DNA of 47,925 nt from a virus (IMGVR_UViG_3300045988_143263), one strand, 5' to 3'; shown: positions 1,284 to 46,552, counted from the stretch's first letter. The notes: generated by a model not told the origin, from the letters alone. Program-made: numbers and translations.

Positions 1284-1579
1284 ACATCTGTTTTGTTATC
1301 AATGAAGATTAACCCTAACCCAGCGAAGTAACACAGCAGCGCCCAGGCTGCATACGGAATGCTGGATCTGGATGTGGACTCCTTTAACATCTGCCAGTTG
1401 CGAACATTGCGACTATCTTTTAAGCCTAGTTTTTTGGCCAACTGCGAGCCGCTCATTCCGGTCAGGCCAATGACTGCCCGAACTTCTCCACATGTAGGAG
1501 ATTCCCATTCATCCGCTTTTTTTAAACAAGCCGGATTCAACATTTTTAAAACAGTATCTTTATCCATAACCATCTCCAT
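1280..1579 (-). CDS. putative HTH DNA-binding protein (start may be an internal Met near 1567)
   Basis: 99-aa ORF with HTH-like segment GMSGSQLAKKLGLKDSRNVRNW. Confidence 0.35.
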   Translation of the reverse strand: MEMVMDKDTVLKMLNPACLKKADEWESPTCGEVRAVIGLTGMSGSQLAKKLGLKDSRNVRNWQMLKESTSRSSIPYAAWALLCYFAGLGLIFIDNKTDV

Positions 1580-1765
1580 TTATTATATCTACGATGGTAG
1601 GAAATCTTTTCCTATGTGGCAATAGAAATTTACTACATTGCGTATAAGACAAGTTTTCTATGTCTAATAGGAAATGATGTTTCTTACGTTTTATCGCGTT
1701 CTGATGGCTACTGTGTGCGTATTTATCGACGTTTATTGATAAGGCTCGCCCCTTCCTCCTGCAAA

Positions 1766-5974: not shown

Positions 5975-8466
5975 ACACTCGATATGTTATACCATGTACC
6001 ATTGATATTTTTTTGAATTGGTCTGTAATAAACGCCACCAATATTATCAGCAGAGTTAGAGCCTGTATCCTGAACGATAATCCCGGTATATGCGCAACCA
6101 GATGGAGCCTGATGTGTCCATGTTGTACCATTATTGGCTGGTTTATATGATGATGCACCACCAAGCCGGATATCCCGGACATAGCGTGAATCAAAATTAC
6201 CGTAATCTGATGGGTTAACACGTCCAGTAACATTTAATCCATGCCCAATTGAAACAGCACCATTGGCGTTGTTAATAGTAAGTGGTCTTAAATTATTCCA
6301 TGAGCCAAATCTGTCACCAGATGCAGTCAGCATAAAATAAGAATCTTTGCCGTCATTTCTGATAAAGAAACCATAATTGCCATAAGCAACGCGCAGACCA
6401 TTGGCATAGAGCGATGTAATTTCACCTCTTGAACGAAGACCATAAGCAGAGCTGAGTGATAATTCTTCCTGAGCATCAGTATTACCGGTCGCCCAGCGAA
6501 TTACCCCGCCCTGTACTGTTTCATGCCAGATAGTGTCTCCTTCTCCACCACGAAACTTTCTGAGATATTTTTTGCCGCCTCTGGTGCCGTAACATAAGGC
6601 CGTAGACATATAGGCATTCTGGCTTCCACTATCCTGATTAATAGTTCCAGACATAGAATCGCCATAACGGTTCCAGTCACGCCGCCAGCCAGGAGCATAG
6701 TTGTCCCCGTGGTTAATATAAGTAAATTGCGCGCTTGTAGCGCCCCCACCGCTTGATGTTGTTGGTGTGGTAATACGAATAGTCATTGCAGACTTTATTC
6801 CCATTACCTCAATAACAGCGCCAGCAAGATGAATATTGCCACAGCCCGTATCGGTAATAAGTTTATTATTGGCATATGACCAGGAGCCTTTGCACATCCA
6901 GTATGGATGATTAAAAGCGCCTACCGAATCAAGCCACTCAATAAACTGAGCTGTAGTCCAGTTTCCACCTTCTGTGCTGTAAGAGCCGCTAAAAGCACGA
7001 GCTGCACTAATATTTTTTGCAAAAGTGTCTTTACTTGGAATATCTGCGCCGTTCTGGTTTTTCTGCAACGCGCCAGAAGCCTGATTTACCGTTTCCTGCA
7101 AACCGAGGTATTCGATAACGGCGGCAACGGTCGATTTCGCAAGAATATCCCGCCCGACTTTTGTCAGAGTTGCCAGGCTGGCGACATCATTCCCCGTAAA
7201 ATACGGAAACCTGTCTGCCGCAGTAGCAAGCCCGGCCAGCGCCGTCAGGGTGGCATCTTTCGGTTGCTTACCCGCAAGCGCGTTAGTCATGGTGGTCGCA
7301 AAATTCGGGTCATTGCCCAACGCCGCAGCCAGCTCGTTCAGCGTATTCAGTGCGTCAGGCGACGAGTCCACGAGGGCAGCGATCGCAGCCATAACATAAG
7401 CCGTGCTTGCGATCTGAGTATTGTTAGTACCTTTTGGCGCAGTTGGTGTTGTTGGTGTTCCGGTCAGCGCCGGACTGTTCAGGGGCGCTTTCTTGTTCGT
7501 TTCATCCATTACCACCTTTACAGCTTTCGATGTCGCGGCCAGTGTTTCAGACGTGCTGTTGGTGGCACTACTGAGCTGAGTTATTCCCCTTACAGTCAGT
7601 GAAGCTACAGGCACATTTGTTATCTGCTCCCACGAATGCGTGTGATTGGACGGAGCCTTTCCGGCCGCAAGATCATACGCTGCCTTAACAGCCTTTGGTG
7701 TTGCTGCCAGCGTTTCAGACGTGCTGTTGGTGGCACTACTGAGCTGAACAATCCCTTTTCGCGCTGTGGTAGCGTCCTGTGCGGTGTATTTAGCGTTAGC
7801 CAGGTCATATGCTGCCTTAACAGCCTTAGGCGTCGCAGCAAGCGTTTCAGACGTGCTATTGGTGGCGCTGCTAAGTTGAACAAAGCCTTTTAAGGTTAAA
7901 GTTGCATCAGGATGATTACGTGATTGCTCATGTTTCACAATGGCTTGCTTAAGCCGCTTTGCTGAAACAGCAAGGGAATCATCTGTACCTGCATCAATTT
8001 CTTGTTCATTAGCAAATCTTGCCACCCCAACAACAGTTTCGGTCGCGGGAGGATTAATAAACTCAATATCACCAAATGTAATATTTTTAGTATCAAGAGT
8101 TTTAATTGCTATATCACTTGATATTAAAGCGATAGTAGATGATGCTTTATTTATTATTGCTTGTTCTTGTGAGTATACAGCAAACAACGTACCCTTATTC
8201 GTATACAATCCTATTGTATGGACAACGTACTCATCTTTACTATCATCCTTCGCTGTTACATGAATTGTATCAGGGGAAACAACTTTGCCACCTATTGTGG
8301 TAAGTCGTTTTATTTCGTTTGTTATATTTGTTTGTGAAGTTGACGTGACATAATATCTACTACCTAAACCAACAGAAACAATCTCAACTTTATTTGTTCC
8401 TGTTTTGTTGGCATTAACCAGCTCCTGACGCCCGGCGTCAGTCATCGTAAATAATAATTTACTCAC
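5971..8466 (-). CDS. tail fibre protein (constant N-terminal region ~7106..8466 plus invertible C-terminal region)
   Basis: 831 aa; three internal repeats of [30 protein letters not shown]; C-terminal receptor-binding module shared with the alternative segment. Confidence 0.8.
7093..7118. other. gix-like inversion crossover site (right, inside tail-fibre gene)
   Basis: TTCCTGCAAACCGAGGTATTCGATAA, inverted relative to the left site; coincides with the LGLQETVN junction of the fibre protein. Confidence 0.7.
7540..7880. repeat. intragenic ~132-bp tandem repeats (three 44-aa repeat units in tail fibre)
   Basis: Near-identical blocks cgtttcagacgtgctgttggtggcactactgagctga at ~7540, ~7708 and ~7840. 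Confidence 0.6.
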
Positions 8467-33151: not shown

Positions 33152-33227
33152 TGGTGGCCCCTACCGGATTTGAACCGATGACCGTGCGATTATGAGTCGC
33201 CTGCTCTAACCACTGAGCTAAGGGGCC
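33152..33227 (-). tRNA. tRNA with CAU anticodon (tRNA-Ile2/Met-like)
   Basis: 76 nt; cloverleaf with acceptor GGCCCCU/AGGGGCC, GCUC/GAGC D-stem, anticodon loop CUCAUAA, GGUUCAAAUCC T-arm and 3' CCA; 5' half resembles E. coli ileX from memory. Confidence 0.8.
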
Positions 33228-41220: not shown

Positions 41221-41877
41221 ATGAAAAGCAACGACGAGAACATCAAGAAAGAAATAGGTCTGCGCATTCAGACTCTACGGAAACAATCCGGCATGACTGC
41301 CGGAGATCTCCAGCAAGTCACTGGAATAGGCTTAAGCACCTTGCAGAACTATGAGGCCGGATTAAGACAACCATCTATACCTGCCATCAAGAAAATCGCG
41401 CACGCCCTGAAAGCATCAGCGCCTTATATCGCGTGCTTAACAGATAACCCGTTCCCACCCCAGAATACTAACGCTCCTGTTATTCCTGGGCTTGTAGCTA
41501 TAAAAAATGACATAGCATCGCACGCCGGAGAAAAGCCAGTGCTGGCGATAGAACAGGAGATTCTACGAAGCAAGAACATCAACCCATCGTCTCTGTCAGT
41601 TCTCCAGAGCAACGATGAGTTAATGTCACCAACAATATCCCCTGGCTCCCAAGTCCTGATTGATACAGACGATACAGAGATTCATGAGGGGATCTATGCC
41701 CTTGAAGACAGAAATGGCCTGGTTGTTTTGAGGCACTGTAGAGTCATACCGGGTGACAATGCTGTTATGCTGTCAACCGAAAGGGATGCTGAAATGAACA
41801 CTAAGCATCTGAATAACGAGGAATTTAAGCGTTATAAAGTTCTTGGCCGCGTAGTTAGTGTTGTCAACTGGTTATGA
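41221..41877 (+). CDS. CI-like prophage repressor (N-terminal HTH, C-terminal S24 LexA-type peptidase domain)
   Basis: 218 aa; HTH TAGDLQQVTGIGLSTLQNYEAG and C-terminal S24-like fold. Confidence 0.75.
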   Translation: MKSNDENIKKEIGLRIQTLRKQSGMTAGDLQQVTGIGLSTLQNYEAGLRQPSIPAIKKIAHALKASAPYIACLTDNPFPPQNTNAPVIPGLVAIKNDIASHAGEKPVLAIEQEILRSKNINPSSLSVLQSNDELMSPTISPGSQVLIDTDDTEIHEGIYALEDRNGLVVLRHCRVIPGDNAVMLSTERDAEMNTKHLNNEEFKRYKVLGRVVSVVNWL

Positions 41878-42475: not shown

Positions 42476-42494
42476 ACACATGGAGTCTCGACAA

Positions 42495-43148
42495 ATGACT
42501 ATCTCTGTAGGTATTTTCAACGGAAAAGGCGGCGTAACCAAATCAACAATTGCCCGTGCTTTAGCAGTTGCTTATGCAAAGGCTGGCTGGAATGTATGCC
42601 TGATCGATATGGATGTGCTTAACGGAACGGTAACACGTTGGGTACAACGCAGAATGGCCAACAATATCGAACCAGCAATCGCGGCGCAGCCGTGCGGCAC
42701 ACCATCACAAGTCCAGAAAATCATCGAATCAGAAGTATACGACCTGGTTATCGTCGATGGCGGTGCCTACGCATCTGAATCAGTACCGAAGCTCTCTGAA
42801 TTTCTGGATATGGTTATTTTGCCAACCAGATTCTCTACCGATGACCTGGAAACCACCGTTAACACAGCTCACGGCATCGTTAAAAAGGGTGTACCAATCA
42901 AGAAAATTTGCATGGTGTTTTCCGGCGCGGCTGAAAACGAAGCTGACTATATTGAAGCCCAAGAGTACCTGGCTAATACGCCATACTTTGTTGTCGATAA
43001 GTACATTCCCCACAAGCCAGCTCTGAGCAAAGCTCAGGATAAGGGCTTAAGCCTCATTGAGTGCTCATACGTTGCGCCACGCAAAAAGGCAGACGACGTT
43101 ATTCAGGGGATTATCAACCAGCTTGAGGCTCTGACTACTGCCGCGTAA
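42495..43148 (+). CDS. parA: ParA-family partition ATPase
   Basis: Deviant Walker A box NGKGGVTKST ten residues from the chosen start; start set at the second ATG (GGAG RBS). Confidence 0.8.
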   Translation: MTISVGIFNGKGGVTKSTIARALAVAYAKAGWNVCLIDMDVLNGTVTRWVQRRMANNIEPAIAAQPCGTPSQVQKIIESEVYDLVIVDGGAYASESVPKLSEFLDMVILPTRFSTDDLETTVNTAHGIVKKGVPIKKICMVFSGAAENEADYIEAQEYLANTPYFVVDKYIPHKPALSKAQDKGLSLIECSYVAPRKKADDVIQGIINQLEALTTAA

Positions 43149-43191: not shown

Positions 43192-43440
43192 ATGGCCGCA
43201 CCATCAAAACCACCAAAGAAGAACAGCAAAGGCGTACCGCCATCGATCGAACAACCGCAGGTTTTCGACCCGACTGAAACGCCAACCAGAACCAAATCAG
43301 GTGGGGCACAAATGGCGTTTAACGTCGACCCTGAATTTAAACGCGAGTACAAAACGTTCGCCAGCTCAATGGATATGTCATTGAAAGAAGTGCTGACAAA
43401 GTCTTTTGAGTTACTCAAGGCTCAATACAACCAGAAGTAA
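43192..43440 (+). CDS. ParG-like ribbon-helix-helix centromere-binding protein
   Basis: 82 aa; disordered basic N-terminus and C-terminal RHH-like segment MAFNVDPEFKREYKTFASSMDMSLKEVL; directly downstream of parA. Confidence 0.5.
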   Translation: MAAPSKPPKKNSKGVPPSIEQPQVFDPTETPTRTKSGGAQMAFNVDPEFKREYKTFASSMDMSLKEVLTKSFELLKAQYNQK

Positions 43441-43502
43441 GAGAAGGTGACGGCCTCCAGCGCCAACTGTTGGCCGTCGCGACACAACAAGGGGAATTTG
43501 TT

Positions 43503-43652
43503 ATGTCCGAGCAACAATATACACGGTTACTGAAAACTCGTCTAACCGACCTCAAACGGCTGCAAGCTGGCTGCTTATTTGCCCTGCTATCCACCAGGCC
43601 AGAATGGGTACGTGAAGCAGTTCTGAAAGGCTTAATGCGCTCCAGCGTTTAA
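43503..43652 (+). CDS. small hypothetical protein
   Basis: 49 aa from ATG at 43503. Confidence 0.25.
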   Translation: MSEQQYTRLLKTRLTDLKRLQAGCLFALLSTRPEWVREAVLKGLMRSSV

Positions 43653-43662
43653 ATTCAGCCAT

Positions 43663-43686
43663 AAAAAAAGGCCCCCGAAGGGGCCT
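43663..43686 (-). terminator. rho-independent terminator (minus strand; hairpin shared with plus-strand gene end)
   Basis: ggcccc-cgaa-ggggcc 7-bp stem; A7 run on plus strand gives a U7 tail on the minus strand. Confidence 0.5.
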
Positions 43687-43691
43687 AATCG

Positions 43692-43814
43692 CTACTTGCT
43701 GCTAATGTTTATCGTCACATTCAGAGCGTTATCAGTAATCTTCCAACCCTCCCCATGTGGCGTAAACAAAGCTCCAGTAACAACGATAAAAATACACATG
43801 TAGTATTTTTTCAT
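43692..43814 (-). CDS. small hydrophobic peptide (signal-peptide or membrane-like)
   Basis: 41 aa MKKYYMCIFIVVTGALFTPHGEGWKITDNALNVTINISSK; followed by a terminator; ~170-nt structured upstream leader. Confidence 0.3.
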   Translation of the reverse strand: MKKYYMCIFIVVTGALFTPHGEGWKITDNALNVTINISSK

Positions 43815-44231
43815 TGTGTGGCCCTTACAGGCCGTTTCACGGCATCCCCACCGACGAAAATGACGCGAGAGCAAGCACGCTGTTTGTGCCTGCGTGGTAC
43901 GGCAAGTGGATAATCCTTTCCTGAAAGTCGGTGCCCGGTTGCGAATCGGCGAAAAGGCCCCGCGTAATGTTACACCGCAGCCCCTTCATAATGAAGGGAT
44001 AAAAATGTATTGTTTTTCATTAAGTTAAATACACACCACAAAAATCACTCGCTTTTGTGCTCTAACAAACCAAATTTATTTGGACAATTTTATTCAGTTA
44101 GGTAAGAATATGATTGCTGTTTGTGCTTGCGTGGTTGTATTTATACAACAACGTAATGCTGAAAGGACCGCGAATCCGATCAGCACGAAAGAACCGTCCT
44201 CAATAGGGCGGTTTTTTTGTTTCTTCACTCA

Positions 44232-44771
44232 TTAAAACAGTCCAAGACCTGTTAATGGCTTCTGATAATCTCGATTATTCATATCAGCGCCGTTATCGAC
44301 CCAATTTCTATATGCTTCATCGCAACAATACATTACAGCAGTTGGAGTAACAGGGATGCCCCCCCCAAATGAGAACCCCATTGAGCTTATGCTAATTCTT
44401 TCGAATGGCCTATTTCTCAATGCTTCAAACCCCTTGCTATTAAAGTAACGCAGCATCAGAGGCAAAAGACTATCTTCTTCCAGAGGAATGGTTCCTGGAT
44501 GGAAGTGGTAACCATAACGGTTAAATTCGGAAATAAGATTTTCTGCCAATGACATGAAATTCACTGGAGTAATATTAAGGGCTGTGAAAGCACCAAAAAG
44601 GGCGTCAACTGTTAATACAGACTGCCCGTTCTCTATCTTTGTCCATGCGTTCGGTGTTTTACCAGCAGCTTGAGCTAGCATCCCTTGATGCACACCTCTT
44701 TCTAGCCTAAGTTCTTTTATGATCATTAGGTGAATTGTTGAAAAACATGAGTTTTTTGACGGTTCAATCAT
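44232..44771 (-). CDS. HTH (XRE-like) domain protein with C-terminal domain of unknown function
   Basis: 179-aa ORF; HTH-like segment GMLAQAAGKTPNAWTKIENGQSVLTVDALF; true start may be the internal Met near 44726. Confidence 0.4.
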   Translation of the reverse strand: MIEPSKNSCFSTIHLMIIKELRLERGVHQGMLAQAAGKTPNAWTKIENGQSVLTVDALFGAFTALNITPVNFMSLAENLISEFNRYGYHFHPGTIPLEEDSLLPLMLRYFNSKGFEALRNRPFERISISSMGFSFGGGIPVTPTAVMYCCDEAYRNWVDNGADMNNRDYQKPLTGLGLF

Positions 44772-44959
44772 TTTTTATCCCCATACTGGATTTTTTTCTT
44801 GTTCCCGACTTTAACAAAACACTACAACTCAAGACTGATTAATTCCTTACAGGAACTATACATTCCCGTTTTCAGCATATCAAGAAAATTAAAAGCCCCG
44901 AATTCAAACCCACACTATGTGGTTTAGTCTGTTAAAATCCCTCTGTATTGACATGAATG

Positions 44960-45056
44960 CGCCATTGGTGGACACTTTCCGAGCCGTAGCAAAATCTACG
45001 GCCGGGATTGGAACCCCGTAGACACAATGGCGCATACCGCGTTAGCGGTTTTTTTA
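44960..45056 (+). ncRNA. candidate c4-like regulatory small RNA
   Basis: Three predicted hairpins (44984..45001, 45002..45018, 45036..45048) ending in T7; two blocks are complementary to the downstream leader at 45128..45148. Confidence 0.35.
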
Positions 45057-45221
45057 TGCGTAAAGCACTGCTACACCCAAATTATGGTGGGGCGTGCGGG
45101 GGAGTCGTAAGACTCGCCGGTTCGTCATTGTGTCCGGTAGTTCCAACCCTGCACGTCTCACCACCCAATGATTGGAACCTGACGGTGGTGAGTATCCTTA
45201 ACCTTTAAGGGAATCATCACA

Positions 45222-45413
45222 ATGACAAACCTACCCCATGACTATTACGTCAACCTCGTAAAGATCCTTCTCAAGAAAGCCTCATACGCCGATAAATTAC
45301 GCCTGGCTGAAATCATCGAGCGCGAAGCTATGCGCATCGCCAGCAACGATAACGCTGTTTCTGACGCAAAAATCTCCCTCGTAACCAAAGTAGTTATGGG
45401 AGGTGCAAAATGA
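45222..45413 (+). CDS. small protein translationally coupled to antirepressor gene (Icd-like position)
   Basis: 63 aa; AAGGGA RBS; stop overlaps the antirepressor start (ATGA). Confidence 0.35.
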   Translation: MTNLPHDYYVNLVKILLKKASYADKLRLAEIIEREAMRIASNDNAVSDAKISLVTKVVMGGAK

Positions 45414-46552
45414 AAACGCTTCCGACCGTTAACACCCTACAGCCTATCCTGCATAACCAGATCCCCGTTATCACTAGTGAACTTCTGGCGCAGTTATACG
45501 GAACAAAAATCAAAAACATTTCTGATAATTTTCTGAACAACACGACGCGATTCGTAGCCGGAAAGCATTACTTTAAAATTGAAAAAAACGAATTACGCGA
45601 GTTCAAGAACAGACCCGAAACAATCGGGTTAGTTGGTAAAAATGCCCGCTCCCTAATTCTCTGGACCGAACGCGGGGCTGCACGTCACGCTAAAATGCTC
45701 GAAACCGATCAGGCGTGGGATGTATTCGAACGGCTGGAAGACTGCTATTTCAACCAGAACGCGCAAACGGCCGCGACCGTAACCGTCTCGCCAAACAATG
45801 CTCGTGAGGTTGTCGATACGCTCAACGCCAAACCGATGTTTTACATTAAGGTGTGCAATAACGAGCCACTCACAACCTCAGCCGATGTTGCCCAGGCATT
45901 CAGCACCACAAACAATTCCATCGTTATGGCCATCGATGCGTTACGCATTCCTCGCACAGCTGCGGCGCGTCACTTCTTTAAAGAACAACGACCGCTGGAA
46001 GGAAGCGACCGCGAAATAACAATCTATCGCATGACAAAAGACGGATTTACCTTGCTCATGGAAAGTATCGACGGTCCAGGCGTGAAGGATATCAAGCTGG
46101 CCTACATTGAAGCCTTTAACGCTATCAGCAGCGTGTTAAAAACACAGTACGAGCGCGATCTGGCTAAACGACTGTACCAGGAAAAAACGATTATCCGCGC
46201 GGCAACAGAGCATAATCGGCTATTAACGGAACCGAACTACAGGAAGGAACTAATCAAGGAGTTTGACAAGGCAACAGGGAAAACCAAAGCGGCGCTAAAT
46301 CTGCCAGCAATGACTCAGGAAAATGTGATATCAGCCTTACTTCTTGATCTGCTCAGAAACGCCAGAGCACTGATCAGCTTTGACGAAAACCTGAATCCTC
46401 AGCTCAAGCTACTACCACCGACAGGCAAAGTAGTCGACCAGGCAGATCACAACAGCATACTCAGCGTACTGGATGCAAACCTGCCAGCCAGGACACTACA
46501 GGAGCTGATAAAAACATGTGCTGATAAGCTCGCACAGAAAAGCAGACCATAA
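45410..46552 (+). CDS. phage antirepressor (Ant-like, ORF6N/Rha-type domains)
   Basis: 380 aa; N-terminal segment ITSELLAQLYGTKIKNISDNF…FKIEKNEL and a second Rha-like region LTTSADVAQAFSTTNNSIVMAIDAL. Confidence 0.5.
   Translation: MKTLPTVNTLQPILHNQIPVITSELLAQLYGTKIKNISDNFLNNTTRFVAGKHYFKIEKNELREFKNRPETIGLVGKNARSLILWTERGAARHAKMLETDQAWDVFERLEDCYFNQNAQTAATVTVSPNNAREVVDTLNAKPMFYIKVCNNEPLTTSADVAQAFSTTNNSIVMAIDALRIPRTAAARHFFKEQRPLEGSDREITIYRMTKDGFTLLMESIDGPGVKDIKLAYIEAFNAISSVLKTQYERDLAKRLYQEKTIIRAATEHNRLLTEPNYRKELIKEFDKATGKTKAALNLPAMTQENVISALLLDLLRNARALISFDENLNPQLKLLPPTGKVVDQADHNSILSVLDANLPARTLQELIKTCADKLAQKSRP

Follow-up and report, generated by a model that had tools for sequence, protein, structure and literature searches.

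What kind of genetic system is built around the small hydrophobic peptide gene in the region 43692–44771 of a 47,925-nt stretch of viral DNA (IMGVR_UViG_3300045988_143263; hereafter the window)? The original prediction was a type I toxin with an antisense RNA, or a membrane peptide regulated by a small RNA. That reading is borne out: the peptide mRNA falls in the ryfA family, a TimR-type sRNA is encoded on the other strand, and the 5' end of the sRNA pairs with the mRNA leader. This pairing lies where that of Salmonella TimR does. The region, carried by a 48-kb phage-plasmid, is very probably a divergent timP/TimR (ryfA) type I toxin–antitoxin module that, judging from its sequence, would function as in Salmonella.

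The ryfA RNA has been renamed timP; its product in Salmonella is a toxin of 38 aa, located in the inner membrane, whose Sec-like signal sequence is not cleaved off, and translation of timP is repressed by the divergent sRNA TimR, whose 5' region pairs with 18 nt of the 5'UTR (PMC7667032). Both the family and the mechanism have been described before; the mobile, divergent copy on a phage-plasmid is what is new. No plasmid- or phage-borne timPR was found in the timPR papers or in full-text searches of an open-access library. The features of the region are as follows.

43664..43687, minus strand: intrinsic terminator of timP (terminator scan, Rfam alignment)
43664..43962, minus strand: timP (ryfA-family) toxin mRNA, full length, with 148-nt 5'UTR, 40-codon ORF and 3' terminator (Rfam RF00126)
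43692..43814, minus strand: timP ORF, 40 aa plus stop, hydrophobic signal-like N-terminus (ORF call, NF040796 alignment)
43820..43833, minus strand: SL4, GGCCU-GUAA-GGGCC, covering the Shine-Dalgarno sequence (MFE fold, pair counts; role per PMC11228461)
43849..43855, minus strand: pseudoknot site 3, GUCGGUG, RNA nt 108–114, in the loop of SL3 (alignment pairing)
43879..43898, minus strand: predicted TimR binding site in SL2 of the timP leader, RNA nt 65–84, ACCACGCAGGCACAAACAGC (pairing, Rfam alignment)
43927..43933, minus strand: pseudoknot site 1, CACCGAC, RNA nt 30–36 (alignment pairing, centroid fold)
43967..43972, minus strand: putative -10 of the timP promoter, TAACAT (sequence reading and allele comparison)
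43982..43998, no strand: 17-bp perfect palindrome, CCCTTCATAATGAAGGG, over the putative timP -35 region (sequence)
44081..44109, plus strand: promoter-like site of the sRNA, TGGACA-17-AAGAAT (promoter scan)
~44116..44219, plus strand: TimR-type antitoxin sRNA, ~104 nt, 5' end ±3 nt (alignment, fold, promoter-like site, terminator)
44225..44905, minus strand: cargo cassette with a 179-aa XRE-HTH gene, outside the toxin–antitoxin module (absence in relatives)

The peptide mRNA is a ryfA-family RNA

Family membership of the mRNA was judged by a score of at least 80 bits, the gathering score of RF00126 ryfA, over the full model. In an Rfam covariance-model scan, the minus strand of 43664..43962 scores 136.6 bits and covers positions 1–296 of 296, and the relatives L006 and L009 score 138–144 bits. 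The fold of the mRNA has a z-score of -4.84. The window timP is ~70% identical to chromosomal timP over 199 nt.

The ORF, predicted at 43692..43814 as a 41-aa peptide, is present there on the minus strand, its length being 40 codons plus the stop. Its product is MKKYYMCIFIVVTGALFTPHGEGWKITDNALNVTINISSK. It spans +149 to +271 of the RNA and begins with MKKYYMCIFIVVTGALF; the start at +149 compares with +145 in Salmonella and with +147 to +151 across all alleles. A small ORF of the family type, starting near +145 and encoding ~38–41 aa with a hydrophobic signal-like N-terminus, is thereby found at 43692..43814. Directly 3' of the ORF, where the prediction had also placed a terminator, the terminator scan finds a strong stem (43669..43686) followed by a minus-strand T-run.

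The 40-aa peptide aligns along its whole length (1–40 of 40) to the NCBIfam model of toxic TimP (NF040796) with E = 1.2e-4 and 22.2 bits, which is below the curated cut-off of 45. The window TimP peptide belongs to a divergent subfamily. The score below the cut-off explains why the locus is unannotated in related records: chromosomal copies are labelled 'timP' by PGAP, whereas the locus is blank in all related plasmid and phage records examined, and the peptide is present in public databases only as 'hypothetical'.

The coding frame of the locus is conserved. Between L018 and L028, the most divergent mobile alleles of equal length, there are 10, 2 and 18 differences at codon positions 1, 2 and 3, respectively, a third-position bias, and 12 codons have changed synonymously and 10 non-synonymously. 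This pattern points to a timP coding frame under constraint.

A TimR-type sRNA is encoded on the opposite strand

The sRNA consists of a seed (44116..44135), two internal hairpins and a terminator (44191..44218). Two chromosomal TimR copies from E. coli align with it from end to end, 59 columns being invariant, and the middle hairpin of the sRNA contains compensatory pairs relative to chromosomal TimR. The calculated fold has an energy of -42.5 kcal/mol (z = -5.48) and leaves the first ~13 nt almost entirely unpaired. Both hexamer positions of the promoter-like site are conserved in all alleles. The hairpin and T-run noticed earlier after the second repeat copy form the terminator of the sRNA, with the stem at 44194..44211 and seven T residues at 44212..44218. 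The features expected of the divergent sRNA, namely location on the opposite strand, 5' complementarity to SL2 of timP and an intrinsic terminator, are thus all found at 44116..44219.

A search of Rfam with the sRNA matched no TimR family. Chromosomal TimR also gave no match, and the result is therefore not evidence against TimR identity. RNAI, Phe-leader and Thr-leader identities were considered for the sRNA; the Rfam matches are weak and all below threshold, and these identities were rejected.

The seed and its target covary

The paired direct repeats are real, 19 of 20 positions being identical, and lie 1–3 nt away from where they had been placed, at 43879..43898 (GCTGTTTGTGCCTGCGTGGT) and 44116..44135 (GCTGTTTGTGCTTGCGTGGT), with a spacing of 237. 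This 20-nt repeat is the sole repeat family within 43600..44300, and chance alone would give a 19/20 match within 700 nt ~1e-5 times (estimate). The copies had been read as two antisense genes. Instead, one copy is the seed of the sRNA, and the other corresponds, as a mirror image, to the seed's target: on the plus strand, the first copy reads as the antisense of the TimR target in the timP leader. The predicted target (nt 65–84) comprises the 5' arm and loop of SL2, matching the location of the TimR site both in Salmonella and in the Rfam alignment.

The seed and target form a duplex of 20 bp, including one G.U pair. The energy of the cognate duplex is -40.0 kcal/mol, compared with -20.0 ± 2.8 kcal/mol for shuffled seeds. 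Extended complementarity of the sRNA was found only to the timP leader, where it covaries.

To compare alleles, relatives were drawn from plasmid and phage records, IMG/VR viral contigs and an E. coli chromosome. The IMG/VR contigs were searched by a TimR core pattern, which gave 14 matches, nine of which also contain ryfA. Seven distinct seed–target alleles were set in register on their conserved cores. Pairing is retained in 98.4% of 126 cells, and 13 of the 18 seed–target pairs have compensatory changes on both sides, values reached by none of 500 shuffles. When the partner is slid by 1–3 columns, pairing falls to 21–48%. Both RNAs are thereby placed in their families by homology, and their pairing covaries across the alleles.

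In a cross-matrix of seeds and targets, each group has its highest stability in the cognate duplexes (-36 to -46 kcal/mol), and chromosomal TimR with the window timP gives -33.5 and -22.9 kcal/mol. The weaker non-cognate duplexes, as energy estimates that ignore intramolecular structure, suggest partial insulation from host antitoxins.

One position in the middle of the duplex varies in pairing type. It is a G.U pair in the window and L018 and a G/A mismatch in L028; one chromosomal copy pairs perfectly there, as do the L006 and L009 alleles. The variation may tune RNase III sensitivity or be neutral.

The leader retains the pseudoknot of the translational switch

The timP leader had been put at ~170 nt of structured RNA. 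Homology to the Rfam model places the RNA start at ~43962, and the leader is therefore ~148 nt (43815..43962). It is predicted to fold into four stem-loops. In Salmonella, the Shine-Dalgarno sequence of timP is trapped in SL4, translation requires a 7-bp SL1–SL3 pseudoknot (sites 1–3) and a site 2–4 interaction, and a site 1–2 interaction locks the inactive state (PMC11228461, PMC13000454).

The pseudoknot is conserved at the locus. Sites 1 and 3 form 7 bp that are 100% paired in all seven aligned sequences, and two of these pairs differ from E. coli by compensatory changes (C-G versus U-A, and A-U versus G-C). The centroid fold of timP also shows the site 1–3 pairing. The Shine-Dalgarno sequence AAGGG (43822..43826, minus strand) is positioned within SL4, 7 nt before the AUG. 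SL4 is shorter here than in E. coli, with 5 bp; in the seven-sequence alignment it is 90.5% paired, with two compensatory pairs. The site 2–4 interaction has a 5-bp core in all sequences, which is almost invariant and hence uninformative for covariation. The site 1–2 pairing of the mobile alleles has only 4 bp, with an energy of -6.5 kcal/mol versus -8.3 and -12.5 kcal/mol in the E. coli chromosomal copies.

A palindrome overlaps the putative timP promoter

The putative timP promoter has a weak -35; at the position of its -10 (TAACAT in the window), other alleles have TAATAT or TAAAAT. The perfect palindrome of the original prediction is real, at 43982..43998 rather than 43967..43983. It is not inside the leader, as had been thought, but upstream of the transcript and over the -35 of the inferred promoter. 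The palindrome is retained in the window and in the L002–L008 alleles despite diverging flanks and is replaced in L009–L011. It may be the operator for a regulator. No further copies were found in the window at up to three mismatches, and the palindrome could therefore not be tied to a regulon. The L003–L008 alleles have an extra AATGAAG half-site-like motif ~70 nt upstream of it.

A '-10-like box' had also been noted next to the first repeat copy, following it. Its position is internal to the timP leader and antisense to the mRNA, and the promoter scan shows no matching -35. Nothing was found in support of it as a promoter.

The HTH gene is a separate cargo cassette

The 179-aa HTH protein with an unassigned C-terminal part is encoded as predicted, by an ORF at 44232..44771 on the minus strand with its own promoter-like site. 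Its only Pfam domain is HTH_3 (residues 18–69). The AlphaFold model has a pLDDT of 86, and PDB structure matches cover the HTH half only. The C-terminal half is helical, conserved and confidently modelled, and neither a family match nor a PDB match was found for it.

The gene lies in a 681-bp cassette, and relatives that do not have the cassette break cleanly at 44224/44906. Homologs with ~50% identity occur in Vibrio, Photobacterium and Deefgea as solitary genes with no timPR nearby; they adjoin a prophage integrase or sit between ogr and the portal gene of a P2-like prophage. Prophage ends and the ogr–portal interval tend to be places where accessory or defence genes sit. We considered the HTH protein as a part of the toxin–antitoxin module and rejected it: since the cassette is missing from many otherwise identical relatives and the homologs elsewhere are solitary, the gene is outside the module.

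The module resides beside maintenance and immunity genes

The window is a ~48-kb Escherichia phage-plasmid. Its close relatives are non-mobilizable plasmids of 46–52 kb with myovirus structural genes, RepA and ParA, and three isolated Yersinia phages are related to it. The timPR locus is kept in ~60 phage-plasmid records and in the three isolated phages. One such relative is the 48,488-bp plasmid NZ_CP009073.1 of E. coli ATCC 25922, where the locus lies at ~19.1–21.1 kb. The surrounding features are as follows.

41221..41877, plus strand: cI-like XRE + S24-peptidase repressor, 218 aa (domain match)
42480..43148: parA
43192..43652, plus strand: 82-aa ORF (phrog_6024) and 49-aa ORF, downstream of parA (phrog match)
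44983..45055, plus strand: isrK, RF01394 (Rfam)
45080..45168, plus strand: C4 antisense RNA, RF01695 (Rfam)
45222..45413, plus strand: 63-aa ORF, phrog_7886 (phrog match)
45410..46552, plus strand: 380-aa ORF6N+Rha antirepressor-like gene (domain match)

The timPR locus directly follows an operon of parA, the 82-aa ORF, which is possibly a partition adaptor, and the 49-aa ORF. The 49-aa ORF terminates at a shared terminator. On its other side, the module precedes an isrK/C4 antisense-controlled antirepressor operon; the region 44970..46552 (plus strand) is a P1/P7 immI-like operon of this kind, adjoining the toxin–antitoxin module. A sub-threshold match to the c4-a1b1 target lies at 44970..45022. 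Elsewhere in the window there is a tRNA gene (33155..33227, minus strand), annotated as tRNA-Ile in the record of a close relative. Besides ParA, the close relatives also carry a RelE/ParE type II toxin–antitoxin system, and in the relatives RepA is several kb from the sRNA.

A further mobile allele, L018 (identical to L032; IMGVR_UViG_3300036772_000294, Buttiauxella sp. MAG DASXXQ010000285.1), is on an 80-kb P1-like element with DarA, ddrB and Rep3. Its timPR locus (~6586..7200) is between a Rep3-type initiator gene and ddrB/darA. A search for sequences near-identical to this allele gave no match in the plasmid or phage collections, and a genome scan for the ORF motif of the mobile clade matched only the Buttiauxella contig of L018 itself. 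The element also has three copies of a C4-like RNA and isrK at 1324..1745. In the E. coli ABW_A19 chromosome (L001; NZ_CP067307.1, 3546457–3549053), two tandem timPR copies are located between sseA and sseB. Their seed–target sequences differ, and an Rfam IS128 match is present between the copies.

Alternative explanations

The ~300-nt RNA could be mainly a non-coding regulator, as RyfA is in studies of UPEC, APEC and Shigella, with an incidental ORF and an sRNA that merely titrates it. The E. coli literature still describes RyfA in terms of an sRNA and points out that no toxic peptide has been demonstrated in that species, and the window peptide falls under the NCBIfam cut-off. However, all mobile alleles retain the ORF together with its start and frame at a nucleotide divergence of 28–30%, and the changes between L018 and L028 are mostly at third positions, with synonymous codon changes outnumbering non-synonymous ones. 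The Shine-Dalgarno sequence, SL4 and the pseudoknot, all of which serve translation, are conserved as well, and mutation of the timP start codon abolished toxicity in Salmonella (PMC7667032). We regard a mainly non-coding role as unlikely. Slightly less probable still is a decaying, non-functional relic of a chromosomal locus. The ~70% identity to chromosomal timP would fit decay, as would the weaker SL4 and site 1–2 pairing and the weak predicted -35, but at least five mobile alleles have an intact ORF, promoters and terminators, together with a compensated pseudoknot and seed–target duplex. That all these parts are intact across the mobile alleles points to purifying selection on the pair rather than decay.

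The two remaining alternatives concern the neighbours of timP. An HTH protein that represses timP or the sRNA, forming with the palindrome a regulatory unit around the peptide gene, would account for the adjacency of the two genes and for a perfect palindrome over the timP -35; yet the many relatives that have no cassette retain the palindrome, and the homologs in other genomes occur as lone cargo genes without a timPR close by. We consider this as improbable as the relic. The plus-strand sRNA, for its part, lies in a maintenance and immunity region beside isrK/C4 and has a weak Rfam match to RNAI (27.2 bits, below the gathering score of 47), as might be expected of a copy-number or other replication antisense RNA, or of a lysogeny regulator, with only a secondary match to the leader. 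The full-length homology to TimR, the distance of RepA in the relatives and the fact that the only extended complementarity found is the covarying one to the timP leader all speak against such an RNA, which we consider highly improbable. A timP/TimR module accordingly remains our reading of the locus.

Proposed mechanism and role

In the model that we propose, transcription of the minus strand would give a timP mRNA of ~300 nt, whose leader would fold into four stem-loops with the Shine-Dalgarno sequence held in SL4. Translation of the 40-aa TimP would need the SL1–SL3 pseudoknot and probably also the site 2–4 interaction that opens SL4. The free 5' end of the divergent ~104-nt TimR homolog would form the 20-bp duplex with SL2, which should destabilise the active conformation of the leader and block translation, as for Salmonella TimR. 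If TimR is shorter-lived than the timP mRNA, plasmid loss or a shut-off of transcription would result in TimP being made. The toxicity and membrane targeting of TimP, and its translational repression by the sRNA, are carried over from the Salmonella work and would apply here by homology.

From its context, the module could stabilise the phage-plasmid or abort infection by other phages, a role to which we give somewhat less than even chances. We infer it from the location beside maintenance genes in two unrelated phage-plasmid lineages, from a timP mRNA that reportedly outlasts TimR in Salmonella and from precedents such as hok/sok. In Salmonella, the timP mRNA is more stable than TimR, and deletion of timR at the native locus did not impair growth (PMC7667032). 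The harmless deletion and the RelE/ParE system in the relatives speak against a strong addiction effect.

More tentatively, the mobile timPR clade as a whole may be a working addiction and/or abortive-infection module whose seed–target pairs have split into five or more specificities, represented by the window, the L006 and L009 types, L028 and the P1-like L018. If so, the split would shield the module from the chromosomal TimR of the host and from rival phage-plasmids, and the clade would provide the first clear biological function for the timPR family as well as a natural allelic series for sRNA specificity.

Work on timPR has so far dealt with the chromosomal locus only. A conserved copy beside par/rep genes suggests roles that are directly testable, namely plasmid retention and phage exclusion. 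The covarying seed–target alleles and the compensated pseudoknot are natural counterparts of the compensatory-mutation experiments behind the mechanism. There is also an annotation gap: ~60 plasmid records and three phage genomes have the locus unannotated, the peptide falls under the NCBIfam threshold and Rfam has no TimR family.

Comparison with known type I systems

The closest known system is chromosomal timP/TimR (ryfA/STnc2070, RyfB1) of Salmonella, E. coli and Shigella, both RNAs of which are homologous to those of the window. In both, a divergent sRNA pairs through its 5' end with SL2 of a ~145–150-nt leader, the Shine-Dalgarno sequence lies in SL4 (in the window, by prediction), SL1 and SL3 form a pseudoknot and the encoded peptide has ~40 aa and a hydrophobic, signal-like N-terminus. 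The two systems differ in location, the window copy being on phage-plasmids beside par/rep genes and the chromosomal copy between sseA and sseB. The C-terminal half of TimP is GEGWKITDNALNVTINISSK in the window and EVNNNRSLSGNNLLVINNLQSSK in the chromosome, and the window peptide is under the NCBIfam cut-off. The seed of the window sRNA also differs from that of chromosomal TimR, and the promoters are separated by ~150–206 nt in mobile copies, compared with ~75 nt in the chromosome. In addition, unlike the chromosomal locus, the window has a palindrome in the promoter region and a weaker predicted site 1–2 lock.

The E. coli type I systems tisB/istR-1, zorO/orzO, shoB/ohsC and dinQ/agrB have divergent, partly complementary antitoxin sRNAs. 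As in timPR, antitoxin and toxin genes are neighbours that do not overlap, the antitoxin base-pairs with a small part of the 5'UTR at a long distance upstream of the ribosome-binding site, and the toxin is a small hydrophobic inner-membrane peptide (in the window, by homology). There is no sequence homology between these systems and timPR. Translation of the tisB, zorO, shoB and dinQ mRNAs requires that they first be processed by nucleases; in timP the switch is purely structural.

[quoted passage not shown] Like that module, it is of type I and is carried by a mobile replicon; its sequence is unrelated. Unlike TimR, Sok is a cis-antisense RNA that acts through the mok frame, and hok mRNA, unlike timP, is activated by 3' processing.
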